A stretch of DNA of 64,000 nucleotides from an uncultured Verrucomicrobiota bacterium (lineage in GTDB: Bacteria; Verrucomicrobiota; Verrucomicrobiia; Limisphaerales; J093). The notes under the pieces were generated by a model that was not told the origin of the DNA, made no database searches, and saw only the letters and a list, made by a program, of their open reading frames with translations. How positions within the stretch are numbered: position 1 is the first letter of the stretch; every line of letters starts with the position of its first letter. A program made the translations under genes and the position numbers. Below, in pieces: positions 16,208 through 44,074 of the stretch. The DNA lies in assembly GCA_964568145.1 (NCBI GenBank), contig CAZMOZ010000001.1, positions 195,536 to 259,535 of the forward strand, given 5' to 3'.

Positions 16208-18193
16208 TCAGCGCGGGCCGCCGGTCAAGCGGGCAAGTTCCTGTCCGGCATGGGTGCGGGTCGGGTCAAGGCGCACCGCCGCCCGCAAATGCCGGATGGC
16301 TTCGGCCGCGCGCGCCTGCCGGGCGTGCAGCAAGCCCAGGCCTTCATGCGACCGGGCGTGGTCCGGGTTCAGTTCGAGCGCCCGGCGAAATTCGGCCCCG
16401 GCTTCGGCAGTCTTGCCCATTTGAACCAGAATCTGCGCGCTCTCGAAACTGGCGGTCGGATCGTGCGGCAGCCGCGCCGCGACCTCGCGCCATTGGGCCA
16501 ACGCGGGCTCCGGCTGACCGGCGGCGAGAAGCGTGCGCGCCAGCAGCGCGTGCAAGACCGGGTCGTCCGGCGCTCCGGCGAGGGCTTCCCGGACGATCCG
16601 GGCCGCCTGCTGGCGCGCGCCCGGCTTGGCCTCGCCGCGGAGTTCTTCCAGGCGCCGGGCCAGCCGCGCCAGCCGCCCGGCGTCGTCAAGCTGACGGCGG
16701 TAGATCGGTTCCTCGAAGCGGCGGCGCATCACCTCACAAATGTCGCGCTCTTGGCCGGGCGAGTAGCCTAGCCGCCGCGCGCTTTCCGCCTCGGAGAGCC
16801 ACGCGGTGTCCGGAGCGGCCCGCGCGGTGATCGCGGACGGCAGCAACGCAGCGATGGCTTCGGCTGACGCGCGCGCCAGCCGGTAGTTGCCGGTGAAGTT
16901 GAAATGGACATGCTCGTAAAACCATTCCTCGCCCGGCACACCGTCCGGCGTCGCCTCCGCAAGGACCCGCTCGGCGTCGAGCAGTTGCACGCCTTGCGCC
17001 GCGCCCGCGCGGGCTGCGTCACGGATGATGCCGTTCAGCCGGCGGTCGGCGCGGAAACGCAAGGTGTCGAGGTCGCGCGCGCGCGCGAAATGTTCCCGCG
17101 CTTCGCGGGCTTTGCCCAAGGCCAGCGCGCAACGCCCCCGACGGAAGTGCAGATCCGCAAAACGGTCGTCCTCGCCGGCCGCCTGCTCGTAGGCACGCAA
17201 GGCTTCGTCGAAGCCGCCACGCGCCTCGGCCGCGACGCCCGCCTGGTACAACGCGCCCCAGGCCGCGAGTTGCTCCGGGGTCAGGTCCGCGCGGTGCAGC
17301 GACCCGAACGGTGCGCAGTCGCGAAGGTTCGAGGCCACGGTGCTCAGGACAACGCGCGCGCGGGCGCCGAGGCCGAGCCGGACGATGTCCGCGAGATTGC
17401 GCTCGAAGTTCGCGTACACCGCGGCCAGCCGCGGGTCGTCCGGGCTGACTTGGTGGTTCAGAAACATGGTCATGCCGCCCCAGCCCCGGGCGGCCGCCTC
17501 GGAGCGGCGCAGCGATTCGACGAGCGTCGCGCACAACTGGCCCACGCGCGTGGTCTTGAGCGCCAGGCTGGCGCGGATGACCGGCAGTGGCGGCGTCCAC
17601 CGGCTGAACACGGGCGCGAGGCCGTACGGGCCGATGACCTCGTTGTTGCCCATGTACACGAGCCAGAGATCGCCATGAAGTCCGGCACATTGGCGGGCGA
17701 TGGGCAGGATGACGTGCGAGTTGATGGCCGTGAACGCGGTGTTGACCACCTCGAAGCGGGTGCCGGGATAACGCGCACGCAGCAGCACTTCGAGGATGCG
17801 CGCGAAGCCGAACGGCGGCGCGGGATCGCCCTCCGCCGCCGATTCGCCGAATACGAAGATGCGGTATGTGTCCGGCGGCTTTGCCGGCACGAGCACGACC
17901 GGATCGGGCGGCCGAGCCAGGGTGGGCGGGATGAAGCGCCAGGCGAAGCGCTGGTTCTCGACCAGCCGGCCGGGCGCGGCCGGATGCGGCACGAAGTAAT
18001 CGGTCGCGTAGCCGTGGCCCGACAGACGCAACGCCAGTTCGGCCAACGCCAGCAGGAGCGGAATCAGCAAGAACGCCGCGACCGGAAACCACCAGCGCCG
18101 CCGCCGCGCAGCTTGTGACGGCGAGGACAGTGCCGCGCTTGTGGCGGCGCGCGCTTCGATCGGCGGAGGCGAAGACTGGCGGGATTTCCTCAT
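16208..18193 (-). CDS. membrane-anchored SGNH/GDSL-like hydrolase domain + TPR repeat protein
   Basis: 661 aa. It has an N-terminal TM helix (WWFPVAAFLLIPLLLALAELAL), an SGNH-like block (YRIFVFGESAAEGDP ... LWLVYMGNNEV) and C-terminal TPR repeats (AEAGAEFRRALELNPDHARSHEGLGLL). Its ATG overlaps the stop of the upstream gene (ATGA at 18190-18193). Confidence 0.75.
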   Translation of the reverse strand: MRKSRQSSPPPIEARAATSAALSSPSQAARRRRWWFPVAAFLLIPLLLALAELALRLSGHGYATDYFVPHPAAPGRLVENQRFAWRFIPPTLARPPDPVVLVPAKPPDTYRIFVFGESAAEGDPAPPFGFARILEVLLRARYPGTRFEVVNTAFTAINSHVILPIARQCAGLHGDLWLVYMGNNEVIGPYGLAPVFSRWTPPLPVIRASLALKTTRVGQLCATLVESLRRSEAAARGWGGMTMFLNHQVSPDDPRLAAVYANFERNLADIVRLGLGARARVVLSTVASNLRDCAPFGSLHRADLTPEQLAAWGALYQAGVAAEARGGFDEALRAYEQAAGEDDRFADLHFRRGRCALALGKAREAREHFARARDLDTLRFRADRRLNGIIRDAARAGAAQGVQLLDAERVLAEATPDGVPGEEWFYEHVHFNFTGNYRLARASAEAIAALLPSAITARAAPDTAWLSEAESARRLGYSPGQERDICEVMRRRFEEPIYRRQLDDAGRLARLARRLEELRGEAKPGARQQAARIVREALAGAPDDPVLHALLARTLLAAGQPEPALAQWREVAARLPHDPTASFESAQILVQMGKTAEAGAEFRRALELNPDHARSHEGLGLLHARQARAAEAIRHLRAAVRLDPTRTHAGQELARLTGGPR

Positions 18194-21100
18194 TCCGGCA
18201 TCGGCGCAACTCGCGTGGCCTCGCGACGAGGAGTGACGCGCACACGGCCTTCAAAATCCACGGTGAGTTCGCGCGCGCCTGCGGGCACGGGCGTCACGGC
18301 TTCACGTCCGCCTGGCCAGCGTACCCAGAGCTGGTCTGGTTCGCCTGCCGCCGCCAGCACCTGGACCGCGCTGTCCTGGGACCAGTAGCCGGCGCCGGCG
18401 CGGATTTCGCGCGCGGGTCCGAGACGCCCGCCCGCGCCCAGCCGCAGCACGGAGCCGATGGCCGCGAGATTGGCCGGCGGGCCGGTCAGACGCACGCGCA
18501 GGCCGGGACGCGCGCCGATGTTTTCGTAAAGGCAGGTGGCGGTTCCGTTCTGGCTCACGGCCAGGTCCACCCGGCCATCGGCGTTGAAGTCGCCCACAGC
18601 CGCGCCGCGCTGTTCGCCATAAACCAGCACGCCGGATTCCTGACCCGTCATGGGCGTCAGGTTGCCGCGGCCGTCGCCGCGCAGCCAGAGTCCCCGGCCG
18701 GCGTCCAGGCGCGGCCATTCGGGCCGGAATGCAAACCAGTTCTGACTCAGAAACACATCCTCATGTCCGTCGCCGTCCGTGTCGGCCACGCACACGGCGC
18801 AGGCCGGGGCCCACTGGGCTTCGCGGGGCAGCGGCACCGCCTGGAAGTGATCGCCGCGGTTCAGGAACAAGGTGGTGGCGAGCGTGTTTGCTGCGGCCAC
18901 GGCCGGTCGCGCGGGCAGGAGCGCGATCACGTCCGCCACGGTCGCGGTGCTGAAGGCGGCGTGGGTCGGGTAGCGCGCGCGGAGAAACGGCAGGGCCTGG
19001 CTGAGCGCATTGAGGTTCCGGCGCGGCATTTCCGTGGTGAGTTCGTCGGGAAAGTACGCCTCGAGCACGTCCACCACACCCTGACCGCCGAGGTCGCCGT
19101 AATAGACGCGCAACGGCCGGTCGAAGCTGGCCTGCGCGGCGTCGTTCCATCCCCAGTTGCCGGCGATCAAATCCAGCCGCCCGTCTTCGTCAAAATCACC
19201 CGCCGCCACGCCGCTCCACCAGCCGGTGAGTTCTGAGAGGGTCGAGGGCTGAGGGGCGGGGGGCGAGCGCGGCGCGAGGCTGGCGAGGTTGGCAGGCCAC
19301 GTCAGCGCTGGATTCCAAGCGCTCAGACTGCCGCGGTCGTTGCGGAAAATGCGAAGCGGCCCCCACTCGCACGCCAGCACCAGTTCAGGCAGACCGTCGC
19401 CGGTGAGGTCGGTCCACTGCGCGCCGGAAACAAGACCGACCTTTTCCAGCAACCGGCTGGCCGTGGCGTCCAGCGTCCAGCCGTCTTCCGAGAGGCGGAA
19501 CAGGCGTGAACTGGCCGGCGCCGGCCAGGCTCCCGGCAACACGCGTCCGCCGACAAACAGCGCGAGATTTCCCTGGCCGTCGAGGTCAGCCATCGCCAGC
19601 GGACCCGGGCTGGCGCCAGCCAGCGTCACGTTGGTCAAAGCCGTGGCAACCGGTGGCCGGCCGGGCGCGAAACTCCACTGAATCACCGCCGGGCCATTCG
19701 TGGCGCCGGTTTCGTAGCTGGCCAGCGCGGTGAGCAACAGATTCGTGCCACCGGCCATCGGCCATGCGACCAGCCCGGCCAGGTCATCCGGCACCGGGCC
19801 GAGCCCGGCGGCGACGGCGGGTTGGAAATCGCCGGCATGGTCCTGTCGGGAGACGCCCAGCGCGCCGTCGCGGCCAGCGCCCACCACCAGTTCATCGCGG
19901 CCATCGCCGTCCATGTCCACCCAAGCCACGCCCGGGCCCAGCTGGCTGAGCAACCGCGTCAACAACGGCTGACGGGCGAAGTCGTTGAAGAGTTCTTCGT
20001 GATGGGTGTGGCGGAGACGATGGCTGATGTCGCGGAACAGTGGCTGGTGCGAGGTGTGAGGCGTGAGATCCGCGGTGCCTGGTGCTTGGTGCTTGGTGCT
20101 TGGTGGTTTGTTTGCGGTTCGTGGCTCCGCTTCAACCGGCAACTGATTACTGGCAACTGAAGAGTGACCACCTGGCGCTGGCGGTTCTTGAATTTCGTAC
20201 AACCGGTTCGGAGCGGCATCAGCTAAGACGCTGCGCCGGCCGCTGCGCCAGCGCACTTCGAGGGTCAGACGGTTGGTGGGGCTGCCAGCCGCGAAGACCA
20301 GTTGGCTGTCGCTGCCGGACAGGTAATGGCCGCCGCAGCGCATTTCCTGCATCTGCATCGGCACCGCGCCGCCGAGCACGCGCACCCGCGCGCCGAAGCC
20401 GGCCCGGTTGGGCGGCTCGCCGCGCAGGCGCACCGCGACCCGCGCCGCCGCGCTGTCGAACCGGTGGAGCCCGGCGCCGCCGTTGATGCCGTTCACCGCC
20501 AGGTCCAGGTCGCCGTCGTGGTCGAAATCCGCAAAGGCGAAGCCCTGCGTGATCTGCGTCGAGTCGAAGCCCCAGGCCCAGCTCACGTCCTCGAAGGTCA
20601 GGTCGCGGCGGTTGCGGAACGCGAGGTTCGGCGAGAGAAACGGCGGGTACAGCAGCAGATTCGTGCGGGCTTGTTCCGGGGCTTGCCGGCCCAGACCGCG
20701 CACGCGGTCCAGCACGTCGCGATCCTGCACGTCGAACATCATGCCGTTGCCGATCAACAGGTCCTCGTAGCCGTCGAGGTCCACGTCGAGGAAGACCGGC
20801 TGCCAGGACCAGTCGGTGGCGGGCACGCCGGCGTACGAGGCGATCTCTGCGAAGGTGCCGTCGCCGCGATTGTGGAACAGCGTGTTCCGGGCGATCTCGG
20901 GGCGGTTGTCCACGCGGCCGGGTACGGGAACCAGCGGCGCCATGCCCACGATCTGGCGCATCCGCAGGCGGTGTTCGCGGCTCATCATCTCCGTGGCCAT
21001 GAAGTCCAGGAAGCCGTCGCGGTCGAGGTCCGCGAAATCCACGCCCATCGAGGAGAAGCTTTGCTTGCGCAGGGCCAGCCGGGGCAGCGCGCGGAAGCGG

Positions 21101-22065
21101 CCGGCGCCGTCGTTGAGCCAGATGCGGTCCACGGTCTGGAAATCGTTGCATACGTAGATGTCCGGCGCGCCGTCGTCGTTGAGGTCCCGCATCTGAACCG
21201 AAAGGCCGAAATCCCACGGCTCGGACTTGGGGTTGCCTTCCTCGTCGAGGAAGTGCGCGGAGTTCCACGGCACCGCCTGGAAGCGGCCGCGTCCGTCGTT
21301 GAGGTACAGCACGTCCGGCTCGCCCACTTCCTCGAGCCGGCCTTCGATGAAACGCAGCCGCTTCGCGTGCGGCCCGGTCACCACCCACTGGCCGTTGACC
21401 TGCCGCATCTCCGCGCGGCCGCCCGAGCGCAGGATCGAGAGCGCGCCGTAGTTCGCGACGTACAGGTCCAGATCGCCGTCGCCGTCCACGTCGGCCATCG
21501 CCAGGCTGGTGCTGCCGGTATCGGAGACCAGGCCGGCCCCGGCGGTGACCTCTCGGAATTGGCCGTCGCCTTGGTTGAGAAGGCAATGCACGCCGGTGCC
21601 CAGCGTGGCGACCAGCAGGTCCAGCCGGCCGTCGCCATCGCAGTCCGCGAACAACGCGCCAGTCGAGTGCAAGCCGGTCAGACCCACCCCAGTGCGCGCG
21701 GTTACGTCCGCGAAACGCCAGCCGCCCAGGTTGCGGTACAGCGCGTTGGTGCCGGTGATGGCGCAAAAGTACAGGTCGCACCAGCCGTCGCTGTCGAAAT
21801 CGCCCGCCGCCACGCCCGAGCCGTTCATGAAGTTGTTGTTGGCGGCGGCGAGCCCGGCCGGCAGCGGGTTTTCAAAACGCAGTCCGGTGGTTTCCGGGCC
21901 CAGCCGCGTGAAGCCGACCCGGTCCGAGGCCGACACCTCCAAGTCGGCGCTCTGGAAACCGTTGCCCGGCTCCCAGTGCAACGGTGCGGCGCCGGCGAGG
22001 TGAACCGCGCCGGCGGAGAGCAACAGTCCCAGCAGACACAGCCGGCTTGCTAACCAGGCGGGCAT
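18190..22065 (-). CDS. double-module FG-GAP/VCBS beta-propeller + UnbV/ASPIC protein (CRTAC1-like), secreted
   Basis: ATG 22065 gives MPAWLASRLCLLGLLLSAGAVHLAGA; the track starts at GTG 22074. There are many DxDGDG-type blades (DFDSDGWCDLYF, DCDGDGRLDLLV, DVDGDGDLDLYV ...). UnbV-like blocks occur twice: GARVRVLGG...RCGGHYLSGSD...VRWRSGRRS and GSVLRL...RAGAGYWSQDSAVQVL...VRWPGGRE. Confidence 0.85.
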   Translation of the reverse strand: MPAWLASRLCLLGLLLSAGAVHLAGAAPLHWEPGNGFQSADLEVSASDRVGFTRLGPETTGLRFENPLPAGLAAANNNFMNGSGVAAGDFDSDGWCDLYFCAITGTNALYRNLGGWRFADVTARTGVGLTGLHSTGALFADCDGDGRLDLLVATLGTGVHCLLNQGDGQFREVTAGAGLVSDTGSTSLAMADVDGDGDLDLYVANYGALSILRSGGRAEMRQVNGQWVVTGPHAKRLRFIEGRLEEVGEPDVLYLNDGRGRFQAVPWNSAHFLDEEGNPKSEPWDFGLSVQMRDLNDDGAPDIYVCNDFQTVDRIWLNDGAGRFRALPRLALRKQSFSSMGVDFADLDRDGFLDFMATEMMSREHRLRMRQIVGMAPLVPVPGRVDNRPEIARNTLFHNRGDGTFAEIASYAGVPATDWSWQPVFLDVDLDGYEDLLIGNGMMFDVQDRDVLDRVRGLGRQAPEQARTNLLLYPPFLSPNLAFRNRRDLTFEDVSWAWGFDSTQITQGFAFADFDHDGDLDLAVNGINGGAGLHRFDSAAARVAVRLRGEPPNRAGFGARVRVLGGAVPMQMQEMRCGGHYLSGSDSQLVFAAGSPTNRLTLEVRWRSGRRSVLADAAPNRLYEIQEPPAPGGHSSVASNQLPVEAEPRTANKPPSTKHQAPGTADLTPHTSHQPLFRDISHRLRHTHHEELFNDFARQPLLTRLLSQLGPGVAWVDMDGDGRDELVVGAGRDGALGVSRQDHAGDFQPAVAAGLGPVPDDLAGLVAWPMAGGTNLLLTALASYETGATNGPAVIQWSFAPGRPPVATALTNVTLAGASPGPLAMADLDGQGNLALFVGGRVLPGAWPAPASSRLFRLSEDGWTLDATASRLLEKVGLVSGAQWTDLTGDGLPELVLACEWGPLRIFRNDRGSLSAWNPALTWPANLASLAPRSPPAPQPSTLSELTGWWSGVAAGDFDEDGRLDLIAGNWGWNDAAQASFDRPLRVYYGDLGGQGVVDVLEAYFPDELTTEMPRRNLNALSQALPFLRARYPTHAAFSTATVADVIALLPARPAVAAANTLATTLFLNRGDHFQAVPLPREAQWAPACAVCVADTDGDGHEDVFLSQNWFAFRPEWPRLDAGRGLWLRGDGRGNLTPMTGQESGVLVYGEQRGAAVGDFNADGRVDLAVSQNGTATCLYENIGARPGLRVRLTGPPANLAAIGSVLRLGAGGRLGPAREIRAGAGYWSQDSAVQVLAAAGEPDQLWVRWPGGREAVTPVPAGARELTVDFEGRVRVTPRREATRVAPMPE
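20074..20122. repeat. heptanucleotide tandem repeat (GGTGCTT-type) inside the inter-module linker
   Basis: The tract reads GGTGCCT GGTGCTT GGTGCTT GGTGCTT GGTGGTT TGTTTGC GGTTCGT. It encodes PSTKHQAP in the gene frame. Confidence 0.9.
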
Positions 22066-22117
22066 GTCATTCACCCCGGGAACAGGAGTTGGGGATCATG
22101 CCCGCCTCGGGCGTCGC

Positions 22118-22485: not shown

Positions 22486-22505
22486 CCCAACCTCTGTTTT
22501 CGCGC

Positions 22506-25500
22506 TCAGCGGACGACCGTGAGTTCACCCGGCCAGCGAATCTCAACCTCGCGAGCATTCGCCGGCACCTCGATTTCGGTGCGGCGGCCACCCGGCCAGC
22601 TCACTTCCACGCGCGACGGTCCCTCATCGCCGGCCAGCACTTGCACCGCGCTGTCGCTGGACCAGTAGCCGGAGCCGGCGTGAATTTCGCGAGCGGGTCC
22701 GGGGCGGCCGGCGCTCCATCGCCGCAGCACCGCCCCCACGCCGGTTGAGTTGCCGGGCGGGCCGGTTAAACGCACGCGCAGGCCAGGTCGTGCGCCAACG
22801 TTCCGAAACAAGCGCGTGGCGTTGCCATTTTGGGTGACCACCAGATCTACGCGACCGTCGCCGTCGAAATCGCCCGCGGCCGCGCCGCGCTGCTCGCCAT
22901 AGACCGCGACCCCGCTGTCCCAGCCCGACACTGGTTCGAAGCCGCCCCGGCCATCGCCTCGCAGCCAGAGGCCCCGGCCGGCGTCGCAGCGCGGCAGCTT
23001 GGGCTGGGTGGCAAAGAAATTCTGGCTCAGGAACACGTCTTCGCCGCCATCGCCGTCCATGTCGGCCACGCCCGCCGCGAAGGCCGGCGCCCACTGGGCA
23101 TCGCGCGGCAGCGGGACGGCGGTGAAATGATCGCCGTGATTCAGGAAGAGCATCGAGGCGAGCGTGTTCGCTTCGAGCCGCCGGGCATTGGCGAGGGCCG
23201 GGCCGAGCACGTCCGCCACCGTGGCCCGGCCAAAGGCGGCGTGGGTCGGAAAATTGGCGCGCACCGCCGGCCAGCCGGCCGCCAGCGAATCCAGGTCGCG
23301 CTCCGGCATTTCCTGGCCGGTCTCCAGCGCCCGCGAGGCCTCGAGCAGTTGCAGCGCGCCGCTGCCATCGAAATCGCCGAAGTACAGCCGGTACGGCGCC
23401 GCCGGTGAGGCGCGCTGGACGATGTTGAGCCCCCAGTTCGTGGCGAGCAAATCCTGGTCGCCGTCGCCGTCGAAATCACCGGTGGTGACGCCGTTCCACC
23501 AGCCGGTGAGCGCGGAAAGGGACGAGGGGAGAGGGGTGAGGGAAGAGACAGGCACGGGTTTGGTCGCACCACCAGCCCAGGTCAGCGGGGGATGCCATTC
23601 GGTCAAGGTCCCCCGGTCGTTGCGGAAAATGCGAAGCGGCCCCCACTCGCACGCCAGCGCCAGTTCCGGCCAGCCGTCGCCGTTCAGATCGGTCCACACC
23701 GCGCCACAGACCAGACCCGCCGCCGTCAGGCGCGCGGTGTTCGCGGTGTCCAACTCCCAGCCGGCGCCTTGCCGTCGCCAAATCTGGGATTGTGCCGGCT
23801 CGGGGTAGCGACCCGGCACGCTGCGGCCGCCCACGAACAAATCCAACGCGCCGTCGCCGTCCAGATCGCCCAGCGCCAGCGGTCCCGGGGTCGAAGCCGA
23901 GGCGGGCACGACGTCCAGGACGTTGGTCTGTCCCGGCACCCACCAGCCGACCGCGCCGCCTGTGGCCTGGCCATCCTCATAGTTGGCGGCGCCAACCAGC
24001 AAGCCGCGCGTGCCGTCCGGCTCCACCATGCCCACAATGGCCGTTTGATCGCGCGCCAGGGTCTGGTTCCAAGGGGGTCCGGACAGCCGCGCGAAGCCGC
24101 CTTGCCGGTCGTTGCGAAAGACCGCGAGTGTTCCGCCCCGGCCGCCGCCCACGATCAGGTCGTCCCAACTGTCGCCGTCCAGGTCGAACCAGCACACGCC
24201 AGGACCGGCCTGGCTGAGCCGGCGCGGCAACAACGGCTGGCGGGCGAAGTCATCGAAGGGTGCTTCGGAGTGGCGGTGGTTGAGGAGCGCCGAGACGTCC
24301 TGAAACAGAGGCGCCGGGGGGACTGGTGACTGGTGAGCGGTGGCTTGGGGCCCGGGACATGGGACTTCGGACTCCGAACCAGGCTCTTCGATTTCATACA
24401 GGCAGTTCGGCTGGGCCCCGGGCACGACGCTCCGCCGGCCGCTGCGCCAGGTGACTTCGATCCGCAGCCTGTTGGTCATTGCGCCGGCGGCGAACACCCG
24501 GAGCGTTTCGTCGCAAGACAGGTACCGCCCGCCGCACATCATCTCCTGGCTTTGCGGCACCGGCCCGCCGCTCACGGTGATCCTTGCGCCGATGCCCGCG
24601 GTGTTGGGTGGCCGGCCTTTCAGGCGAACCGCCAGACGCGGCGCCGGGGACTCGTTGCCATACAGTCCGAGCGGCCCGTTCAGGTTGCTGACGACCAGGT
24701 CCAGGTCGCCGTCGTTGTCGAGGTCAGCCAGGGCCATGCCTTGCGAGACGCCGACCTGGTCAAAGCCCCAGGCCTGGCCGCACTCGGCGAAGGTCAGGTT
24801 GCCCCGGTTGCGGAAAGCGAGGTTGGCCTGGGCCAACGGCGGCAGCATGAGCAGCTTGCCGGGAATCTGGCTTGGCGGGTACGGGCCGCGGGCCGCGATG
24901 CGCGCTTGGGCGTCGAGGTCCTGTGTGTCGAACATGTGCCCGGTGGCGGCGAGCAAATCCTCGAAGCCGTCCAGATCCACGTCGAGGAACAGCACGGACC
25001 AGTTCCATTCGGAGTCCTCCAGGCCGGCGTAGCAGGCCACCTCGGCGTAGGTGCCGTCGCCGCGGTTCCATTGCAGCACGGTGCGGTCGAGTTGCGGCCG
25101 GTCATCGAACACGCCCGGGATGATCTCGTACGGCGCCATGCCGGCGATCTGCATGAGCCGGCGGCCGCGCGCGCGGCTGGTCATGTCCGAGACCAGCAGG
25201 TCATCGCGCCCGTCGCGGTCCACGTCCGCGAAGTCCACCGCCATGGAAAACGTGGCGGTGTGACGCAGCGCCAGTCGGGGAATGGCGCGGAAGCGGCCCC
25301 GCCCGTCGTTGAGCCAGACGCGGTCGGGTGAATGAAAATCGTTGCAGACATACAGGTCGGGATGACCGTCGCCGTTCAAGTCGCGGAAGGCCGCGGTCAG
25401 GCCCCAGTCACGCGGCGCCGCGCGCAGCGGGCGGCCGTCTTCGTCGAGGAAGGCGCCGTCCGTCCAGGACACGGGCTGGAAGCGGCCGCGGCCGTCGTTG

Positions 25501-31905: not shown

Positions 31906-31935
31906 AAACAAAAAGACCGGGCCGAAGCCCGGTCT
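31906..31935 (-). terminator. rho-independent terminator after the 31963..35370 gene
   Basis: On the minus strand the hairpin AGACCGGGC-TTCG-GCCCGGTCT is followed by TTTTGTTT. Confidence 0.7.
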
Positions 31936-31962
31936 CGTGAACTCAGCCCGGCTGAGCGCCGG

Positions 31963-35710: not shown

Positions 35711-35743
35711 AAACAAAAAGAGACCGGGCTGAAGCCCGGTCTC
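35711..35743 (-). terminator. rho-independent terminator after the 35770..39816 gene
   Basis: On the minus strand the hairpin GAGACCGGGC-TTCA-GCCCGGTCTC is followed by TTTTTGTTT. It is nearly identical to the terminator at 31906..31935. Confidence 0.7.
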
Positions 35744-35769
35744 GTGATCTCAGATCGCTAAAACGCCAG

Positions 35770-38700
35770 TTACTGGCCTTGGACGCGGAAATACATCGCC
35801 GCGGCCGAGGCCGGCGTGGTGTAGGGCTTGGTGGAGCCAACGTTGGTCCACGGTCCCAACACTGAGGTGGCGGACTGCAATGTGCCCTCGCCTTCCCAGT
35901 TGATGGTGACGTTCCCACCGCTGAGGCTGATCGTCATCTCACCGGGTTCCTGGCCACCGCCACCCGCTTTGACGAGCTGGACAGCGTTGAGCGGCGCGCG
36001 CGGGTTGCTGCCCGCGCCGTGGCCGCCGGCGGTGCTGGCTTCAACGACGATGCCCGGAGCGTTGAGGCCCTTGAACACGATGTAATTGCCCACGTTGTAG
36101 AGCGTGGGATCACCCGTCACCTCGACGTAGCTCGTCGGATTCACCGAGCAGAAGGCGTGGACGTAATCCTTCAACACCGCCTGAGTGGCGGCGCTGACGA
36201 TCCGGTAGCCACCGCCCTTGTTCGGCACGCCGCCGAGCAGGTACACGTACACGTCATACCCCTCGGAGGTCAGTTCGGTCGGTAGGCCGGTGATGGTCAC
36301 CGTCGTGGTCGTGGCCGCGCCGGTGTCGAGATATCCCGTCATCAGGGTTTTGTCGTTCCCCGTGAACTGGTTGTTCTCCTCGCCCCGGCCGGTGCTCGAC
36401 CAGGTGTTCGGGCTGGACCATTCGACTTGGACAGCTGTCACCTGGGCGGCCCCCTTCGAGTCCGCCACGATGGCGCTGCTGGTGCCTGAAGCCCCGCTCA
36501 GGTTGTTCCAGTTGGCTTGCAGAACCTTCGGAACGCCCGCCGTGCCAATCGAAGGCAGGATGCCCCCGTTAGCCCCCGCCGGCTCATCCGCGCCGAAGTT
36601 CAGACCAATGCCGTAATCCACCACGGACGGATTCGACACGTAGCTGCCGTACTGGCGGAACTTGGCGACGGAGGAGTGGCCGACGCCCGCAGCCGTGCCG
36701 TTGTTGCACATCTCCGGGCTGTAATAGATGCCGACCAGAAGTGTGTCCGGCATCGGTTCGGCGGCGGTGAACGTGTGTGAACCGTAGGAGGTCCAGTTCC
36801 GGCCGTCGCTGCTGTAGAAGCCAGTGAAGGTCTGGCCAATGCGCTGCATGCGGAGCCAGGCGTTCGGATAAGCCGGCACGCCGGCGCCCGTGCCGCCGTA
36901 GTTGCCGCCCGCGGTGTCGCGCCAGTCGGCTTCGTTCTGGTTGTTGCCCGCGGTGCCGTTCCACTGCACGGCCGGATTGGCGCGCAACATGTAGCGTTTC
37001 TCCATCAGCGCACCGCCGGCGACCGCCGCCCGGTTCACGCCCTCGTCGTGGGCCGGCGTGGCGCACATGCCGGCGCGGGCCCACTGGCTGGTCGGATCGT
37101 GGTATTCGACCCGCACCACCTTGTCGAAGTCGCCCGTGATTTCCTCGTATACGAAGGTGGCTTCGTCGTAGTTGTTCCAGTTGGCGGAGCCGCTGCTGAC
37201 GAGGTCGAAGTCCGCCTCGCTGAGCGCGATGGCGTCATCCGGCCACAGCGCCGCGTCGGTCGTGATGTCCTGGCCGCACGTCTCGCCCTCGAGGTAGTCG
37301 TTGCCACCCATCGCAGCCCACTTCATCTTGCTCGTGACCTTCAGCGCCTTGCTCTCGCCGGCTGCTGGCATGGTGTTTCCCTTGACGTCCTTGATGTTCT
37401 TGGCGGTCACGGTGACGGTGTCGCCCGCCGCCAGACCGGAGGTGGTCAACACCACCGCGGCGCCGTTGAACGGACCGGCGGTGCCGAGCTTGAAGAAGCC
37501 CGCGCCGTCGGTGTGGGCGAAGCGTTGGTAGCGCACGCCGGTGACCGTGCCCTTCGAGAGGGAGTAGTTGGCCACCGCGCCCGCGGTTGTCGGGTCCACG
37601 TTCTCGTCGAAGCCCACGCCGATCTCGATGGCGTTGCCCTTCATGAGCGAGCCCGCGCCGACCAGCTTGGGCGGGAACGTGTCAGGCACGACCGTCAGGG
37701 TGGCGGCGGCACTAACCTTGGAGAAGGTCGGCACGCTGCAGACCACCTGGAACTTCGAGCCGTTGTCCGCGAGGGTCAGGATCGGTGTCGTGTAGGACGC
37801 CCCGTTCGCCCCGGGGATGTCCGTAAAGGTGGCGCTGCCCGGCGGGGCTTTCTGCCACTGGTAGGTGACCGTATTGCCGTACGAGGACGTGCCGGTGGCG
37901 ACCACGGAGAAGGTGGCCACGCGCTCCTCCTGCTGGGTGGCGTCCGCCGGTTGCTCGGTGATGTCCACGTTGGCGCCGTTTGGATCGAGGAACGTCGCAA
38001 TGACATTCCCCCTCATGAACATGCCGGAGGCGTTCTGCGCCGGGTCGGCGTCGCCCTCCCTGATGAAGGTCACGTCCGCGCCGTCCCCGCCGCCGCCTTC
38101 GTCCCACAGCACTTCCATGTAATATCGCCGGTTGGCGGTGAGCGTGATGGTGTTGAAGGTCGGCCACTCGATCCCGCCGAACTGGTCGGAGCGCTTGCTC
38201 GTCGCATCCCCAGAGCCCACCGTCTGCCACTGGTACTGGTTGCTCCAGCCGGTTTCCTGGGCGATCAGCTTTTTGTTCGCCGGCTTGTCATCCGTGCTCA
38301 GGTACACATTGCTCTGGTCGTCGGAGGCGACGAAGAACACGTAGTTGCCGTTGGCCGGCGGGATGAAGTAGCCGTACACGCGCGCGGAATAGTTGTCGCG
38401 CGCGCCCCACGGCCCGCCGAACTGCTGGTAAGCCGAGGCGAAGTCCGGCGCGCGGATCGTGCCGTCGGCGATTGCCTGGGCGAAGGCGTTGATGTCGCCT
38501 GGATCGCCGTTCTCATTGTGCCAGCGTTCGTAGCTGGCCCAGCCACGCGCGAAGACAGGCGTCAGGAACGTGATCGAGCTGTTCGCCGCGATGGCGTTGC
38601 CCGGCACGTCCTTCACGTTGTTGACCGTCAGGGTCAGCGTCGCGCCTTCGGCCTGTGTGCTGGTCGTGAGGACCACGACATTGTCACCGGCCTGGCCCGC

Positions 38701-39816
38701 GGGGGCGCCGAGCGCCGCGGCGCTGACGGTCACGCCGCCCGAAATCTGGTAGTTACCAGTGGCTTGGGCGGTGGCAGGGTCCAGCGGTTCGGAGAAGGCC
38801 ACCCGCAGCGTGTTGAAGCTGGCGGAAACCCCCACCGAGACCAGCGTCGGGCCGGTCGTGTCGTTGTTCACCGTGAGCGTGGCCTCCGCGCTTGTCACGG
38901 TTCCTTGTCCGCCGGTCACCACGACCGAGAACTTGGCGCCGTTGTCGGCGCGGTAGGCCCGGCTGAGGGTGTAGGAGGTGCCTGTGGCGTTGGGGATGTC
39001 ACCGCCATTCCGTTTCCACTGGTAGGTGTAGGGCGGGGTGCCGTCCGCGACGACCGAGAAGGTGACGGGCGAGCCTTCGTTCACCGTCTGGCTCTGCGGC
39101 TGCGTCGCGATCTTCACCGGTCCGCTCGTTTTATCAATGGTGGACAGGTACTGGCCCGGGATGGGCAGACTGGCGTCAATCACGAAGTTGGGGTCCTGCA
39201 CGGCCACGGCCAGGTTGTCCCCGCCGCCGCCTTCCTTGGATAGCGCCTCAATGTAGTACGCACGGTTGGCCTGGAGGGTGATCCGTGCCCCGCCATTCGC
39301 GGGGTCTTTGGTGGGCCACTCGGTGCCGGTGAAGGTCTGGGAGTTCTTGGCCTCCACCGTGCTGCCGCCCCCGATGGTGGTGAACGCGCGCACCGGGCTC
39401 CAGCCCGTCTCTTGGGCGATGAGCTTTTTGTTGGCCGGGTCGGCGTCGGTGCTCAGGTACAGATTTGAACCATCGTCAGCCGCCAGGTAGAAGACGTAAT
39501 CACCGGTGGCCGGCGGGTAGAAGTAGCCGATGATCTGGGTGCCGTAATTGTTGTACACGTCGCCCGGTGGCGGCGTGTTGATGTCGCCCGAGAACGGGTA
39601 CTCGAAGTAGCCGGGGTAGGCGACGATGTCCGGGTTGTTGGGGAACTTGGCGTTGCCGGTGAGGTCGGTAACAGCAGTGCCACCGCCGATGTTCAAGAAG
39701 GCTTTGGCAGTGATGAAGCCCTGCGGTGAAGGGGGTGCCGCAGCCTGGACCAGGATTGCTCCCAGCCCGAAGGCGCAGACTCCCGTGACAAGGGCACGGA
39801 GTTGTGTTTTGCCCAT
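35770..39816 (-). CDS. giant secreted multidomain protein: PA14 + Ig + Big_5 + PA14 + Ig + Big_5 + DUF1349/LamG-like + extra ~270-aa domain + conserved C-terminal domain
   Basis: An internal ATG at 39816 gives MGKTQLRALVTGVCAFGLGAILVQAAA. There are two PA14-like blocks: GDYVFYLAADDGSNLYLSTDADPANKKLIAQE...ANRAYYIEALSKEGGGGD and GNYVFFVASDDQSNVYLSTDDKPANKKLIAQE...ANRRYYMEVLWDEGGGGD. The C-terminal half is about 90 percent identical in DNA to the downstream paralog over the stretches I aligned. Confidence 0.8.
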   Translation of the reverse strand: MGKTQLRALVTGVCAFGLGAILVQAAAPPSPQGFITAKAFLNIGGGTAVTDLTGNAKFPNNPDIVAYPGYFEYPFSGDINTPPPGDVYNNYGTQIIGYFYPPATGDYVFYLAADDGSNLYLSTDADPANKKLIAQETGWSPVRAFTTIGGGSTVEAKNSQTFTGTEWPTKDPANGGARITLQANRAYYIEALSKEGGGGDNLAVAVQDPNFVIDASLPIPGQYLSTIDKTSGPVKIATQPQSQTVNEGSPVTFSVVADGTPPYTYQWKRNGGDIPNATGTSYTLSRAYRADNGAKFSVVVTGGQGTVTSAEATLTVNNDTTGPTLVSVGVSASFNTLRVAFSEPLDPATAQATGNYQISGGVTVSAAALGAPAGQAGDNVVVLTTSTQAEGATLTLTVNNVKDVPGNAIAANSSITFLTPVFARGWASYERWHNENGDPGDINAFAQAIADGTIRAPDFASAYQQFGGPWGARDNYSARVYGYFIPPANGNYVFFVASDDQSNVYLSTDDKPANKKLIAQETGWSNQYQWQTVGSGDATSKRSDQFGGIEWPTFNTITLTANRRYYMEVLWDEGGGGDGADVTFIREGDADPAQNASGMFMRGNVIATFLDPNGANVDITEQPADATQQEERVATFSVVATGTSSYGNTVTYQWQKAPPGSATFTDIPGANGASYTTPILTLADNGSKFQVVCSVPTFSKVSAAATLTVVPDTFPPKLVGAGSLMKGNAIEIGVGFDENVDPTTAGAVANYSLSKGTVTGVRYQRFAHTDGAGFFKLGTAGPFNGAAVVLTTSGLAAGDTVTVTAKNIKDVKGNTMPAAGESKALKVTSKMKWAAMGGNDYLEGETCGQDITTDAALWPDDAIALSEADFDLVSSGSANWNNYDEATFVYEEITGDFDKVVRVEYHDPTSQWARAGMCATPAHDEGVNRAAVAGGALMEKRYMLRANPAVQWNGTAGNNQNEADWRDTAGGNYGGTGAGVPAYPNAWLRMQRIGQTFTGFYSSDGRNWTSYGSHTFTAAEPMPDTLLVGIYYSPEMCNNGTAAGVGHSSVAKFRQYGSYVSNPSVVDYGIGLNFGADEPAGANGGILPSIGTAGVPKVLQANWNNLSGASGTSSAIVADSKGAAQVTAVQVEWSSPNTWSSTGRGEENNQFTGNDKTLMTGYLDTGAATTTTVTITGLPTELTSEGYDVYVYLLGGVPNKGGGYRIVSAATQAVLKDYVHAFCSVNPTSYVEVTGDPTLYNVGNYIVFKGLNAPGIVVEASTAGGHGAGSNPRAPLNAVQLVKAGGGGQEPGEMTISLSGGNVTINWEGEGTLQSATSVLGPWTNVGSTKPYTTPASAAAMYFRVQGQ

Positions 39817-40375: not shown

Positions 40376-43300
40376 TTAGTTGGTCTGTGGCTTCGCCAGT
40401 CCGTCCCAGCTTAACCGCACCTCGCGAGCCCCGGCCGGCACCGGCGTTTTGCTCGTTCGACCGCCGGGCCACCGCACCTCCACAGCTTGGGATTGCCGGT
40501 CGCCAGCGTGGAGCACCAGCGTCGCCCCGTCTCGCGAGCCGTACCCGCTGCCGGCCATCACCGCCCGCACCGGACCGGCCTGGCCATCCGCCATCTCCAA
40601 CCGCACCCCCGCGCCGATGCCGTCTGGATTTTCCGGCGGTCCCACCAGCCGCACGCGCAAGCCCGGCCGCGCGCCGGCATTGCGGAACAAACCGGTGGGA
40701 GCGCCGTTCTGGGCGACAACCAGATCCGCCCGGCCGTCGCCGTCGAAGTCCGTCGTCGCGCAACCGCGTTGTTCGCCGTAAAGCACCACGCCGGAGTCCT
40801 GACCGGGCATCGCCACAAACCCGCCCCGGCCATTGCCGCGCAAGACCAGGCCGCGACCGGCGTCCATGCGATTGAAATCCGGCTGGGTGGCGTGGAGGTT
40901 CTGGCTGAGGAACAGGTCTTCGAGCCCGTCGCCGTCCCAATCGGCCACGCACACGCCAAAGACCGGGGCGAACTGGGCGGCGGCTGGAAGCGGCACCGCT
41001 TCAAAACGCCCGCTGCGGTTCAGGAACACCGTGCTCAGCAGCGTGGTCGCGCTGAGTTCCTTCGCCTTTGCGCCTTCCGCGCCCAGCATCTGACTCACGC
41101 CGGCCTGGGCGTAGGCGCGCCGGGATGCAAAACGGGTTCTCACAAACGGCAACGCCGCGGCCACGGCGTCGAAATCGCGGCGCGGCGCCAAGCCGATGCC
41201 GGGCACCTCGTAGGCCTCGATCAGGTCCACGGCGCCGTTCTCGTCGAGGTCGCCGTAAAACAGCCGCAACGGCTGCTGCGGCGAAGCGCGGTACGGGCTG
41301 TTCAGTCCCCAGTTGCCCACCGCCAGGTCCAAGCGGCCATCGCCATCGAAGTCGCCCGCGGTGATGCCGCTCCACAGACCGGTCCACGCGTCCAGACCCC
41401 ACGCCGCCGTGGCCTCGTGCAGGGTGCCGCGCCGGTTTAGCAACAGGCGCACCGGACCCCACTCGCAGGCGAGCGCCAGATCCGGCCAACCGTCGCCGTC
41501 CACGTCCGCCCACACCGCGCCCGCCACCAGACCCGGGCCGGCGAAGAGCCGCTCCGCCGCCGGGTCGGGCGTCAACGCTCCCTGCTCGTTGCGGAAGAGG
41601 TGCGCGCCGGCCGGCTCGGGGTAACGCCCCGGCACGAAGCGGCCGCCCACGAACACGTCGAGGTCGCCATCGCCGTCGTAATCCGCCACGGCCACGGGCC
41701 CAGCGCTGAACGGGGCGCGCCATTCCCCGGCCGGGCGCAGGCGGCCGTCGCGCCACTCGAACGCGGCAAGGACCGGCGCGTTGGTTGCGCCGACCGTTTG
41801 GTTGGCCAGGCCGATCAGCACTTGCCGCCGCCCGGGCGCGGGCACCCAGGCAGCCACGGCCACGCCGTCGCCCGCCAGCGGCGGTAGCTCGGCCGGCAGC
41901 GGCGCCCAACACTCCGCCGCGGCGTCGTAGCGAAAGGCCTCGACCCGGCCGCCGGCATCGCCGGGCACGACCAATTCCTCGCGGCCGTCGCCGTCCAGGT
42001 CCACCCAGCCCGCGCCCGGCCCAAGGCGGCTGAGGCGGTAGAGCAAGAGCGGTTGCTGGGCGAAATCTTCGAACGGTTCCTCGCCGTGACGGTGGGCAAG
42101 GCGCGCGGAGATGTTCTGTAACAGGGAGGGGTTTTTGGTTTGTGGTTCGTAGTTGGTGGTTCGTGGTTCGGGGCCCGGTTCCTCGATTTCGTAAAGGTGG
42201 TTCGGCACGGCGTTGGTCACCACCGAGCGCCCGCCCGCGCGCCAGAACACCTCGAGCGTGAGCCAGCGGGCCCGGCCCGTGGCAAAGACCCGCACCGGTT
42301 CGTCGTCGCCCATGTACCGACCGCCCGCCGCCATCTCGACCTCCTGGACCACCGGCCCGCCGGTGACGCGGATGCGGGCACCGACGCCCCGGGTATTGGG
42401 CGGCCGGCCGCGCAGCCGCACGGCCAGGCGCGGGGCCGGACTGTCGTTGCGCAACACCAGCGCCTCGTCGCCCAGGCAGTTGATGACCACGTCTAGGTCG
42501 CCGTCGCCGTCCAGGTCGCCCAAGGCCATGCCGTTGGCAATGCGCCGCGAGTCGAAGCCCCAGTCGCGGCCGCGTTCGCGGAAGGTGAGGTTGCGCTGGT
42601 TGTGGAAGGCGAGGTTCGGGGTGTCCAGGCGCTCGAACATGAGGGTGGTTTTACGCGACTCGGCCACGCTCAGCCGGCCCAAGCTGCGGACGCGCTCCTG
42701 GGTGTCGAGGTCATCCACGTTGTGGAGGAAACCGTTGCTGACCAGCAGGTCTTCCCAGCCGTCGAGGTCCACGTCCAAGGGCAGGCAACTCCACGCCCAA
42801 TCGGAGGCCGCCGCGTCCGCGTACCACGCCAGTTCCTCGTAGGTGCCGTCGCCGCGGGCATGGAGCAGGACATTGCGGCGAGTTTGGTGGCGGGAATCCA
42901 GGTCCCCGGGCGGGCGCGGCTGATCGTGCATGGTGCCGCGCTGGGTCAGGACATAGAGGTGCTGGCGCGCGAGCATGTCCGTGACAAACAGGTCGTCCCG
43001 GCCGTCGCGGTCCAGGTCGGCGGCGACCACCGACATCGAGAAGTACGGCGTCAGACGCACCGCCCGGCCGGGCACCGCGCGGAACCGGCCGCGGCCGTCG
43101 CCCCACCAAAACCGGTCCGGCGTCGAGGCGTCGCCGCACACGTAGAGGTCCGGCGCGCCGTCGCCGTTGAAATCGTGAAAGAGCGCGCTGAGGCTCTGGT
43201 CCCACGGCGCTTCGGCCAGCGGGCGGCCGTCTTCGTCCAGGAACGCGCCGCCGGTCCAGTTCACCGGCGTGAACCGGCCCGCGCCGTCGTTGAGGTAAAG

Positions 43301-44074
43301 CGTGTCCGGCTCGCCCAGCTCGAAGACGCGGTCGCCCACGAACCGGATGCGTTTGGCGTGCCGGCCGGTGGCCACGGGCCGACCGCCCACCAGGCGGAAA
43401 CTCAGGTGCCCACCGCTGCGGAGGATCGAGTTCACGCCGTAGTTGGCCACGTACAGGTCGAGGTCGCCGTCGCCGTCCACGTCAGCCAGCGCGGCCGAGG
43501 TGGCGCCCAGTTCGGAGACCAGCCCCGCGGCGGCAGTGACGTTGGTGAACGTGCCCCGGCCGGTGTTGAGGAAGAGCGCGTTGGGGCCGCCCATCGAGAG
43601 CACCAGCAGGTCCAGCCGGCCGTCGCCATCCATGTCGGCAAAGACCGCGCCGGTGGACAACTGGTCGGCACAGGCCACGCCGGCGGCGGCGGTCACGTCC
43701 TCGAAGTGCCAGCCGCCGAGGTTGCGATACAGGGCGTTGGGGCCTTCCAAGCGGCAAAGATAGACGTCGCACCGGCCGTCGCCGTCGTAGTCGCCCAGGG
43801 CCACGCCGGAGCCGTTGAGCAGGTTTACGTTCTCGAGGTATCGCGCCGGGGAGAGGTGGTTGGTGAACCGGATTCCGGTCGTGCTTCCGGGCAGCGTCGT
43901 AAAGCCGGTCTGGCCCATGGCCGGAACCGCCAATGGCAGACGGCGGAAACCCGCGCTAGCTTCCCAGTCGGCAGCGCTGCTTTCCGCCGCAAGCGAGGTG
44001 ACTTCAAATGCGGCGGCCAGCGACGCGGCGACGAATCCCGTGCCGGCAGCTCCGGGTCGTGGCAGGCTCAGCAT
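40376..44074 (-). CDS. double-module FG-GAP/VCBS + UnbV/ASPIC protein (CRTAC1-like), paralog
   Basis: The track ORF starts at TTG 44146. ATG 44074 gives MLSLPRPGAAGTGFVAASLAAAFEVTSLAAE. The architecture matches the paralogs (GARIRVTGG...AAGGRYMGDDE...VFWRAGGRS; GAGVRL...MAGSGYGSRDGATLVL...VRWPGGRT). Confidence 0.8.
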   Translation of the reverse strand: MLSLPRPGAAGTGFVAASLAAAFEVTSLAAESSAADWEASAGFRRLPLAVPAMGQTGFTTLPGSTTGIRFTNHLSPARYLENVNLLNGSGVALGDYDGDGRCDVYLCRLEGPNALYRNLGGWHFEDVTAAAGVACADQLSTGAVFADMDGDGRLDLLVLSMGGPNALFLNTGRGTFTNVTAAAGLVSELGATSAALADVDGDGDLDLYVANYGVNSILRSGGHLSFRLVGGRPVATGRHAKRIRFVGDRVFELGEPDTLYLNDGAGRFTPVNWTGGAFLDEDGRPLAEAPWDQSLSALFHDFNGDGAPDLYVCGDASTPDRFWWGDGRGRFRAVPGRAVRLTPYFSMSVVAADLDRDGRDDLFVTDMLARQHLYVLTQRGTMHDQPRPPGDLDSRHQTRRNVLLHARGDGTYEELAWYADAAASDWAWSCLPLDVDLDGWEDLLVSNGFLHNVDDLDTQERVRSLGRLSVAESRKTTLMFERLDTPNLAFHNQRNLTFRERGRDWGFDSRRIANGMALGDLDGDGDLDVVINCLGDEALVLRNDSPAPRLAVRLRGRPPNTRGVGARIRVTGGPVVQEVEMAAGGRYMGDDEPVRVFATGRARWLTLEVFWRAGGRSVVTNAVPNHLYEIEEPGPEPRTTNYEPQTKNPSLLQNISARLAHRHGEEPFEDFAQQPLLLYRLSRLGPGAGWVDLDGDGREELVVPGDAGGRVEAFRYDAAAECWAPLPAELPPLAGDGVAVAAWVPAPGRRQVLIGLANQTVGATNAPVLAAFEWRDGRLRPAGEWRAPFSAGPVAVADYDGDGDLDVFVGGRFVPGRYPEPAGAHLFRNEQGALTPDPAAERLFAGPGLVAGAVWADVDGDGWPDLALACEWGPVRLLLNRRGTLHEATAAWGLDAWTGLWSGITAGDFDGDGRLDLAVGNWGLNSPYRASPQQPLRLFYGDLDENGAVDLIEAYEVPGIGLAPRRDFDAVAAALPFVRTRFASRRAYAQAGVSQMLGAEGAKAKELSATTLLSTVFLNRSGRFEAVPLPAAAQFAPVFGVCVADWDGDGLEDLFLSQNLHATQPDFNRMDAGRGLVLRGNGRGGFVAMPGQDSGVVLYGEQRGCATTDFDGDGRADLVVAQNGAPTGLFRNAGARPGLRVRLVGPPENPDGIGAGVRLEMADGQAGPVRAVMAGSGYGSRDGATLVLHAGDRQSQAVEVRWPGGRTSKTPVPAGAREVRLSWDGLAKPQTN
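42136..42177. repeat. heptanucleotide repeat (GGTTCGT-type) in the inter-module linker
   Basis: The tract reads GGTTTGT GGTTCGT AGTTGGT GGTTCGT GGTTCGG GGCCCGG. It encodes EPRTTNYEPQTKNP on the minus strand. Confidence 0.85.

Follow-up and report, generated by a model that had tools for sequence, protein, structure and literature searches.

Proteins in which a beta-propeller with the Ca2+-binding loops typical of FG-GAP/VCBS repeats is followed by an UnbV_ASPIC domain are known from vertebrates, where they are represented by cartilage acidic protein 1 (CRTAC1/ASPIC; PDB 9etn), and from bacteria; in open-access papers and preprints, we found no report on the function of bacterial ASPIC/UnbV or CRTAC1-family proteins. 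Here we analyze a block of eight minus-strand genes (positions 16208-44074) in a 64,000-nucleotide stretch of DNA from an uncultured Verrucomicrobiota bacterium of the Limisphaerales (GenBank assembly GCA_964568145.1, contig CAZMOZ010000001.1, positions 195,536 to 259,535; hereafter, the window) that encodes four proteins of this family together with members of three other families. We denote the four families C (double CRTAC1-like proteins), H (an FG-GAP protein with a CxxCH motif), G (giant proteins with PA14, immunoglobulin (Ig) and concanavalin A (ConA)-like domains) and T (a TPR protein with an SGNH-like domain). The C proteins share the propeller-ASPIC succession with CRTAC1 and differ from it in that two such modules are joined in one protein of ~1250 amino acids (aa), that the EGF-like domain present in vertebrates is missing, and that the genes belong to a conserved cluster in which a cytochrome-c propeller protein is also encoded.

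Parts of the locus resemble several other described systems. CRTAC1-family genes have been reported to lie between genes for haem-c/propeller proteins similar to hydrazine synthase (HZS) in Planctomycetota, Acidobacteriota and Syntrophobacter (PMC12758564), which makes a general link of CRTAC1-type propellers to c-type haem partners plausible. What the two arrangements have in common is a CRTAC1-family FG-GAP gene beside genes for c-type haem and beta-propeller proteins in non-anammox bacteria; they differ in that multi-haem homologs of HZS alpha and beta-gamma are encoded there, as opposed to a mono-haem domain on an FG-GAP propeller here, that genes for ABC substrate-binding proteins are linked there, compared with a giant lectin-type protein and a TPR-SGNH protein here, and in the phyla involved. 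Adjacent genes for exported PA14, ConA-like and Ig proteins and for an SGNH-type, esterase-like enzyme are also shared with polysaccharide utilization loci, but no SusC/SusD or TonB-dependent transporter, carbohydrate-active enzyme (CAZyme) or regulator is encoded in the block or its flanks or is co-conserved in the 80 related loci described below; given the absence of a transporter and of CAZymes, the cluster is not a polysaccharide utilization locus. Quinohaemoprotein dehydrogenases, which combine a pyrroloquinoline quinone (PQQ) propeller with a cytochrome c domain, offer a functional analogy to H in that a periplasmic propeller is fused to a single c-type cytochrome domain. The propeller of H, however, is of the FG-GAP/CRTAC1 type with Ca2+ loops rather than of the PQQ type, its cytochrome domain is N-terminal, and no match to a PQQ family was found for H in Pfam or in the structure search. 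The T protein shares with the SGNH/GDSL superfamily (9otv, 2o14) the block I serine, the block III asparagine, the acid-x-x-His signature of block V and, in its AlphaFold model, a flavodoxin-like strand order, but has GES in place of GDS and ExxH in place of DxxH, an insert of ~95 aa with TPR-like helices between beta4 and beta5, an N-terminal membrane anchor and a C-terminal TPR array. The parts of the locus thus appear to belong to known families (CRTAC1/ASPIC-UnbV, cytochrome c, PA14, Ig, SGNH-like and TPR), and it is their conserved combination that seems to be undescribed: in line with an earlier reading made from the sequence alone (hereafter, the sequence-only reading), which had stated that the composition of the block matches no described system, we found no description of a G-C-H-T cluster in open-access papers and preprints.

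The eight long open reading frames (ORFs), with G+C content at third codon positions of 0.80-0.90 in a window of ~68% G+C, run from g8 to g1 in the order C-G-G-C-H-C-C-T. Their number, strand and starts are as given in the sequence-only reading, and the lengths of the g1-g5 products (661, 1291, 1248, 546 and 1276 aa) are the same in the gene calls of the Joint Genome Institute (JGI) on identical metagenome contigs (L006, L007). All eight products begin with a segment that resembles a signal peptide or a membrane anchor. The genes and their principal motifs are as follows.

40376..44074, minus strand: g8 (C, deep-branching type), 1232 aa, double CRTAC1-like, upstream of the giants
35770..39816, minus strand: g7 (G), 1348 aa, signal peptide
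31963..35370, minus strand: g6 (G), 1135 aa, signal peptide
28035..31865, minus strand: g5 (C, U1 type), 1276 aa, the double CRTAC1-like neighbor of H on its upstream side, ATGA-coupled to H
26398..28038, minus strand: g4 (H), 546 aa, signal peptide, CxxCH-bearing cytochrome-c-like domain of three helices, seven-bladed FG-GAP propeller
27805..27819, minus strand: C-T-A-C-H haem-c attachment motif of g4 (residues 74-78), invariant in 31 homologs
22506..26252, minus strand: g3 (C, D1 type), 1248 aa, double CRTAC1-like, immediately downstream of H
18190..22065, minus strand: g2 (C, D2 type), 1291 aa, signal peptide, FG-GAP propeller plus ASPIC in two modules, 11 DxDxDG-like loops
19885..19989 (g2), 24153-24257 (g3), 29661-29765 (g5) and 41969-42073 (g8), all minus strand: junction block at the start of the second module of the C proteins (regular-expression matches at residues 693, 666, 701 and 668, respectively)
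16208..18193, minus strand: g1 (T), 661 aa, membrane anchor at the N-terminus, SGNH-like domain interrupted by TPR-like helices, C-terminal TPR array
16844..17896, minus strand: part of g1 (residues ~100-450, helical insert 306-400 included) that is SGNH-like and predicted to be catalytic, as judged from motifs and the AlphaFold model

The core gene order G-C-H-C(-C)(-T), on one strand, recurs in many genomes and contigs of uncultured Verrucomicrobiota. Among 80 loci seeded with H (one genome per species), in which ORFs taken stop-to-stop were scored with hidden Markov models (HMMs) built from the window proteins and based on few sequences, 43 carry a strong double C gene within 10 kb, which is adjacent and on the same strand in 34-36 of them; a G-type giant is present in 17-23 loci, depending on the scoring rule, and T in three. 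Only metagenome-assembled genomes and metagenome contigs contributed related loci in Verrucomicrobiota; many of the contigs are short, so that the counts of absent genes are upper bounds; the bins labeled Bifidobacteriaceae, 'Akkermansia muciniphila' and Limnocylindria are probably mis-binned or mislabeled. The recurrent same-strand layouts around H are GCHC, GCHCC, CHCT, GCHT, GGCHC, GCCH, HCC and GHC, and Pfam-labeled gene calls at three of the loci (L010, L011 and L012) agree with them. When metagenomes were searched with the ConA-like domain of G as the query, a 412-kb contig with 90% identity (L093) was found to encode G-G-C-H-C with a partial C on each side, that is, the layout of the window; the other layouts are GCH, GHCC, GTCC (twice), GC, GCC and CGCH, and T lies divergently beside G in two cases. 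With T as the seed, an ortholog with 85% identity ends a C-H-C-C-T array that is followed by rpsT (L125), one with 74% identity ends a C-H-C-T array (L126), and another with 74% identity directly follows a C gene (L001). The T paralogs with 60%, 55% and 49% identity are found in unrelated contexts; T is linked to the cluster only at ~74% identity or more.

The co-occurrence anticipated in the sequence-only reading therefore holds for the four families, which recur on one strand and in order, but does not make a core of all eight genes: only G-C-H-C is widely conserved, and g8, the second giant and g2 are lineage-specific expansions seen only in near relatives. Judging from this genomic context, G, C, H and T very likely constitute a conserved, functionally linked cluster. 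When the remaining ORFs of the 80 loci were clustered all against all, no fifth co-conserved family emerged, only a local synteny in Arenibacter and a PD40+TPR family that is present in seven loci and absent from the window. In several close relatives, at L018 (11860-14244) and also at L013, L015, L016 and L017, a protein with a PD40 propeller, TPR and a CGNCH motif follows the cluster; the window has no such gene. A pair of DUF6057 and Tricorn/PD40-like genes directly follows the T genes with 74% identity (L001, 12398-15834; L126, 11636-15069) and may represent a further accessory module.

The four C proteins show 48-55% pairwise identity over their full length. In Pfam, each has strong matches to FG-GAP_3 (E-values from 1e-72 to 1e-83) and UnbV_ASPIC (PF07593; 50-66 bits against a cut-off of 23.4) and none to an EGF-like domain; they contain 11-14 DxDxDG-like loops each and no haem motif. 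That they are tandem duplications, as proposed in the sequence-only reading, is borne out by hhalign comparison of the N-modules with the C-modules (probability 99.75%, E = 3.4e-27, 415 columns) and by the match of the C-terminal ASPIC-like segment of each C-module to the N-module HMM (E ~1e-18). The second UnbV_ASPIC copy is matched directly in g5 and g8 and through this HMM cross-match in g2 and g3, so that each protein comprises two homologous units rather than a single propeller-ASPIC unit, and the junction block that had been noted at the start of the second module (F-x-D-F-x-[RQ]-Q-P-L-L...G-P-G...D-[LM]-D-G-D) is present in all four. Comparison with PDB identifies CRTAC1 (9etn) as a relative of g3 (E = 1.8e-13) and of the N-propeller profile (E = 8.5e-20). 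Kinship of the C propellers with propeller polysaccharide lyases was considered and found no support in the PDB profile search. The double architecture is common: a representative search with residues 26-1225 of g3 gave 62,533 hits, of which 4,527 have E <=1e-30; full-length doubles of ~1200-1290 aa make up almost all of the top 150 clusters (50% identity).

The C paralogs are orthologous by position. Among the C proteins encoded upstream of H in other loci, 12 of 17 have g5 as the best match, with up to 76% identity, compared with only 47-53% identity between g5 and its own neighbors in the window, and 19 of the 21 C proteins encoded downstream of H have g3 as the best match. Likewise, in a neighbor-joining tree, g5 groups with the C proteins encoded immediately upstream of H and g3 with those immediately downstream, whereas g2 groups with the second downstream C, its best ortholog being the second C gene downstream of H in L015 (65% identity). 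The g8 protein belongs to a deep lineage and is seen in the same position only in the near relative L093. Such position-specific orthology excludes recent local amplification and speaks for distinct, conserved roles of the two C proteins that flank H.

The H protein is best described, from its sequence profile and structural model, as the fusion of a mono-haem cytochrome-c domain with a CRTAC1-type propeller, and it is likely to be a genuine c-type haem protein. Pfam recognizes only FG-GAP in g4. The haem motif noticed in the sequence-only reading proved to be real: residues C74, C77, H78, P81, P83 and W91 are invariant in 31 homologs, and CxxCH is retained in the homologs checked from Bacteroidota (6 of 6), Kapaibacteria and the bins labeled Limnocylindria. 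The profile of the 90-aa N-terminal domain matches almost exclusively c-type cytochromes in PDB, with dihaem cytochrome c (DHC; 2fw5, E = 0.014), 6cuk (E = 0.018) and class-I cytochromes (E = 0.02-0.1) at the top of the list; the Pfam family DHC matches 15 of 23 H members (best E = 7e-5; E = 0.18 for the window g4 alone) and Cytochrome_CBB3 matches 13 (best E = 5.4e-6). A methionine is located 21 residues after the haem histidine in 26 of 37 homologs, and 34 of the 37 have some methionine 10-30 residues after it. The AlphaFold model of g4, with a predicted local distance difference test (pLDDT) score of 84, consists of a three-helix domain followed by a seven-bladed propeller, and in the structure search it comes closest to murine CRTAC1 (9etn, E = 4.6e-11), with aldos-2-ulose dehydratase, a sugar-acting enzyme, and integrin alpha next. 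At one locus (L096, 5638-7323, minus strand), a second, divergent H-like gene (587 bits with the g4 HMM) is located divergently upstream of a G-C-H cluster.

For the T protein, only TPR is above the Pfam cut-off, and some homologs of g1 carry a precomputed match to PF13472. Alignment of 49-120 homologs reveals three blocks, namely G116-E-S118 (block I), G182-N-N184-E185 (block III) and E427-H-V-H430 (block V), in which G116, S118, G182, N184, E185, H428 and H430 are invariant and E117, N183 and E427 are conserved in at least 90% of the sequences. In the AlphaFold model (pLDDT 90), the sheet is flavodoxin-like and has these motifs after beta1, beta3 and beta5; a transmembrane helix (residues 27-58), the TPR-like insert (306-400) and the C-terminal TPR array are likewise modeled. 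Foldseek with the full model retrieves only TPR proteins, which mask the SGNH part; when the latter is compared with PDB profiles, only SGNH proteins are matched, at a non-significant E-value of ~1. The TPR region is weakly similar to BcsC, PgaA and PrsT, a generic resemblance. The SGNH assignment of the sequence-only reading thus fell below the Pfam cut-off and was supported by the near-invariant catalytic-block residues and the predicted topology; g1 is SGNH-like and probably active, although not formally proven to be a member of the family.

The two giants share 62% identity over 839 aa, which, along with the similarity among the C proteins, agrees with the paralogy asserted in the sequence-only reading. 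The predicted domain order in g6 is a weak ConA/L-type-lectin-like domain, Ig, Big_5, a PA14-like domain, Ig, a Big_5-like domain, a DUF1349/ConA-like domain and a 55-aa C-terminal domain; in g7, it is PA14, Ig, Big_5, PA14, Ig, a Big_5-like domain, a DUF1349/ConA-like domain, a domain of ~230 aa and the same C-terminal domain as in g6. PA14 is matched in g7 in two stretches (62.1 bits against a cut-off of 24), along with I-set and Big_5. The I-set match in g6 is above the Pfam cut-off; there is no direct Pfam match to PA14 in g6, where residues 429-848 align to the PA14-containing region of g7 with 36% identity. In PDB, the giants match only Ig domains. The region of ~230 aa that is absent from g6 (g7 residues ~1063-1290, window ~35947-36630) has no Pfam match even at E = 5. 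Over their last 55 aa (...LQSATSVLGPWTN...MYFRVQGQ), g6 and g7 are 81% identical, and a loosely similar C-terminal ending (...SRFYRGMLMP) is found in an unrelated Ig protein encoded at 55872-57602. A terminator-like hairpin stands immediately 3' of each giant gene:

35720..35743, minus strand: terminator-like hairpin after g7, of the strong intrinsic type, with a T run
31913..31936, minus strand: terminator-like hairpin after g6, with a 10-bp stem and a T run

The g6 hairpin and its flank are 82% identical to those after g7; the duplicated DNA (31910-32106 and 35717-35913) includes the 3' ends of both genes, indicating that the giants arose by a tandem duplication that carried the terminator along.

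The single co-regulated block assumed in the sequence-only reading did not hold up. The g5/g4 and g2/g1 pairs, the only overlapping ones among the eight genes, form 4-bp ATGA overlaps that can be read directly in the sequence, as had been stated, and, judging from these overlaps, are translationally coupled. The other intergenic distances are 559 bp (g8/g7), 399 bp (g7/g6), 97 bp (g6/g5), 145 bp (g4/g3) and 440 bp (g3/g2). An operon with short spacers and no internal terminators is not what is found: the strong terminators after g7 and g6 and the long spacers of 559, 399 and 440 bp indicate that the block comprises several transcription units. A scan for sigma-70 promoters gave no match, the consensus probably being unsuitable for this phylum; no RNA family was detected by Rfam in 15000-46000, no convincing common motif in the regions upstream of g6 and g7, and nothing specific in an NCBIfam search of all eight proteins. 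The 440-bp spacer between g3 and g2 contains a 137-nucleotide direct repeat (22102-22238 and 22351-22487; 77% identity, 249 nucleotides apart), the 24-nucleotide core motif of which is absent from the rest of the window; no significant fold was found for either copy relative to shuffled sequence (z-scores of -0.10 and +0.37). The g4-g3 spacer is filled exactly by a 50-codon ORF (26249-26401, minus strand) that JGI calls as a gene and that has ATGA overlaps at both ends, its ATG with the g4 stop codon and its stop codon with the g3 start; this ORF is conserved only in contigs of the same organism and was not counted as a gene. Unlike g4 and g3 in the window, H and the next C gene overlap directly in the relative with 85% identity (L125).

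From the observed parts of the locus, their conservation and order, and the conserved haem and SGNH motifs, we infer the following mechanism. All the products would leave the cytoplasm via the Sec pathway, and H would receive its haem in the periplasm; the proteins would then act jointly, at the envelope or the cell surface, on a single polymer that is most likely rich in carbohydrate. G might capture this polymer by means of its PA14 and ConA-like domains, and the C paralogs, which are not redundant, could bind or process it in a Ca2+-dependent manner. Binding or transformation of the polymer would fall to a conserved core made up of H and the U1 and D1 forms of C, in which H supplies an electron-transfer (oxidative) step or a redox coupling to the respiratory chain. 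From its inner-membrane anchor, T would face the periplasm and remove or transfer acyl groups, while its TPR array holds, and may scaffold, the partners at the membrane. The reading of the block as an expanded copy of a cluster that is conserved in Limisphaerales/Pedosphaera-type Verrucomicrobiota and jointly processes a surface polymer or glycan is the one that we favor, with confidence that falls just short of even; glycan processing as the actual mechanism is a more tentative proposition, for which the argument comes solely from analogy with the PA14, ConA-like and SGNH domain families. The dedicated glycan system of the sequence-only reading is accordingly retained with respect to functional linkage, for which co-occurrence argues, and was overstated with respect to the glycan role, which is a matter of domain analogy with no CAZyme or transporter co-conserved. 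A more specific version, in which H and its two fixed C neighbors form a hitherto unrecognized exported haem-propeller enzyme complex that oxidizes a recalcitrant extracellular polymer captured by G and de-acylated by T, appears unlikely.

Several observations weigh against joint processing of a glycan or another surface polymer. The domain calls of the sequence-only reading were upheld by Pfam for FG-GAP/VCBS, UnbV_ASPIC, PA14, Ig and TPR, but the calls most pertinent to glycans stayed below the cut-offs: Lectin_L-type in g6 scores 31.5 bits against 78.3, DUF1349 in g6 and g7 22.8-27 bits against 32.4 (sub-threshold scores that are compatible with a ConA-like fold), and Lipase_GDSL_2 in g1 13.8 bits against 32.9 (E = 0.086). 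The C propellers match only CRTAC1 and the propeller of the Tc-toxin protein YenB in PDB, and the candidate axial methionine of H is not invariant among the 37 homologs. With regard to genomic context, co-conservation in the 80 loci does not extend to any glycoside hydrolase, lyase, TonB-dependent or ABC transporter or regulator, about half of the loci found with G as the seed contain G alone, although many of these contigs are short, and the terminators after g6 and g7, along with the long spacers, favor several transcription units. Furthermore, 37 of the 80 H loci contain no partner, so that C is not strictly needed by H, and in Bacteroidota H is found alone among housekeeping genes, which implies that H can work without C.

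An alternative is a role in which non-catalytic, Ca2+-stabilized surface or matrix proteins build or anchor a surface layer or biofilm matrix, T adds or removes O-acyl groups on the organism's own exopolysaccharide, and the haem of H is structural or serves as a sensor. Among solved structures, the propellers are most closely related to binding proteins (CRTAC1, integrin alpha, the YenB propeller and ITFG2), the giants are rich in Ig domains, which are all that they match in PDB, their own strong terminators would suit abundantly expressed structural proteins, and Ca2+ loops are numerous; moreover, exopolysaccharide modification and export typically involve TPR scaffolds and periplasmic SGNH domains anchored in the membrane. 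Nevertheless, genes for polysaccharide synthesis or export are missing from the cluster and its surroundings, both in the window and in related loci, a cytochrome-c domain that is conserved across phyla is hard to reconcile with a purely structural protein, and H and the flanking C proteins contain many invariant residues outside the loops; on balance, we regard this adhesion or matrix role as somewhat unlikely. The invariance and cytochrome-c-like character of the CxxCH domain would rather fit a periplasmic haem-propeller oxidoreductase that acts on a non-glycan substrate, with H as the catalytic or electron-transfer subunit, the flanking C proteins as partner subunits, and G and T as accessories. 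Such an enzyme would also accord with the placement of H between two distinct, orthologously conserved C proteins, with the coupling of H to the upstream one, with the similarity of its propeller to that of aldos-2-ulose dehydratase, and with the reported CRTAC1-family genes between haem-c/propeller HZS homologs (PMC12758564). It is improbable all the same, given that the C proteins have neither a haem motif nor a recognizable cofactor site, H has one haem only and is solitary in Bacteroidota, and no further electron carriers or maturation genes are co-conserved. The least likely explanation, with only a small chance of being correct, is that there is no system at all, but rather a tandem array produced by local duplication in a hugely expanded paralog family, with neighbors brought together by chance or by shared secretion needs. 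The sheer size of the family (62,533 representative hits), the local duplication of g6/g7 including the terminator, the several transcription units, and the location elsewhere of distant T paralogs and of some G and H genes are all in keeping with this view. It is, however, already largely refuted by position-specific orthology, as far as can be judged from sequence comparison: the C paralogs of the window are old (48-55% identity) and each is closer to the same-position gene elsewhere (up to 76%) than to its neighbors, and the same four unrelated families recur together whether the seed is H, G or T.

The block is flanked by housekeeping genes, namely rpsT and genes for agmatine deiminase, an FKBP protein and a DUF5696 protein on one side, and selA, nuo genes and accA on the other. 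A tRNA-Sec gene (8303-8399, plus strand) and selA, which encodes L-seryl-tRNA selenium transferase (44215-45699, plus strand) and directly abuts the cluster, are both present in the window, and a small Rdx-family gene (the family includes selenoproteins) is located near an AhpC gene in L125; thus, the organism probably uses selenocysteine. Two radical-SAM genes (565-2040 and 3600-5066, both plus strand) encode, in one case, a DUF3463 domain, which is typical of the hopanoid side-chain enzyme HpnH, and in the other a B12-binding domain. A large protein with a Ser/Thr kinase domain and a WD40 propeller (60800-64000, plus strand) runs past the end of the window. The stop-to-stop ORFs for NuoG-like (46158-48110, minus strand) and NuoF-like (47846-49270, minus strand) proteins overlap by ~265 nucleotides, and the start codon of the NuoG-like gene probably lies further downstream than the start of the ORF.

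The CRTAC1/ASPIC-UnbV family numbers tens of thousands of proteins in environmental bacteria and includes a human protein. The present analysis supplies for this family a conserved gene order with position-specific paralogs and a cytochrome-c-fused member that is conserved across phyla, and what looked like many secreted paralogs becomes a defined module of four families, G, C, H and T. This module predicts that H binds haem, that H and C form a complex, that T possesses esterase activity, and that the PA14 and ConA-like domains bind ligands. Should the haem-propeller complex prove true, it would be the first biochemical function for the CRTAC1/ASPIC-UnbV family, human CRTAC1 included, and, if the redox link is correct, the cluster would represent a new route of polymer processing in Verrucomicrobiota that are abundant in soil and freshwater.

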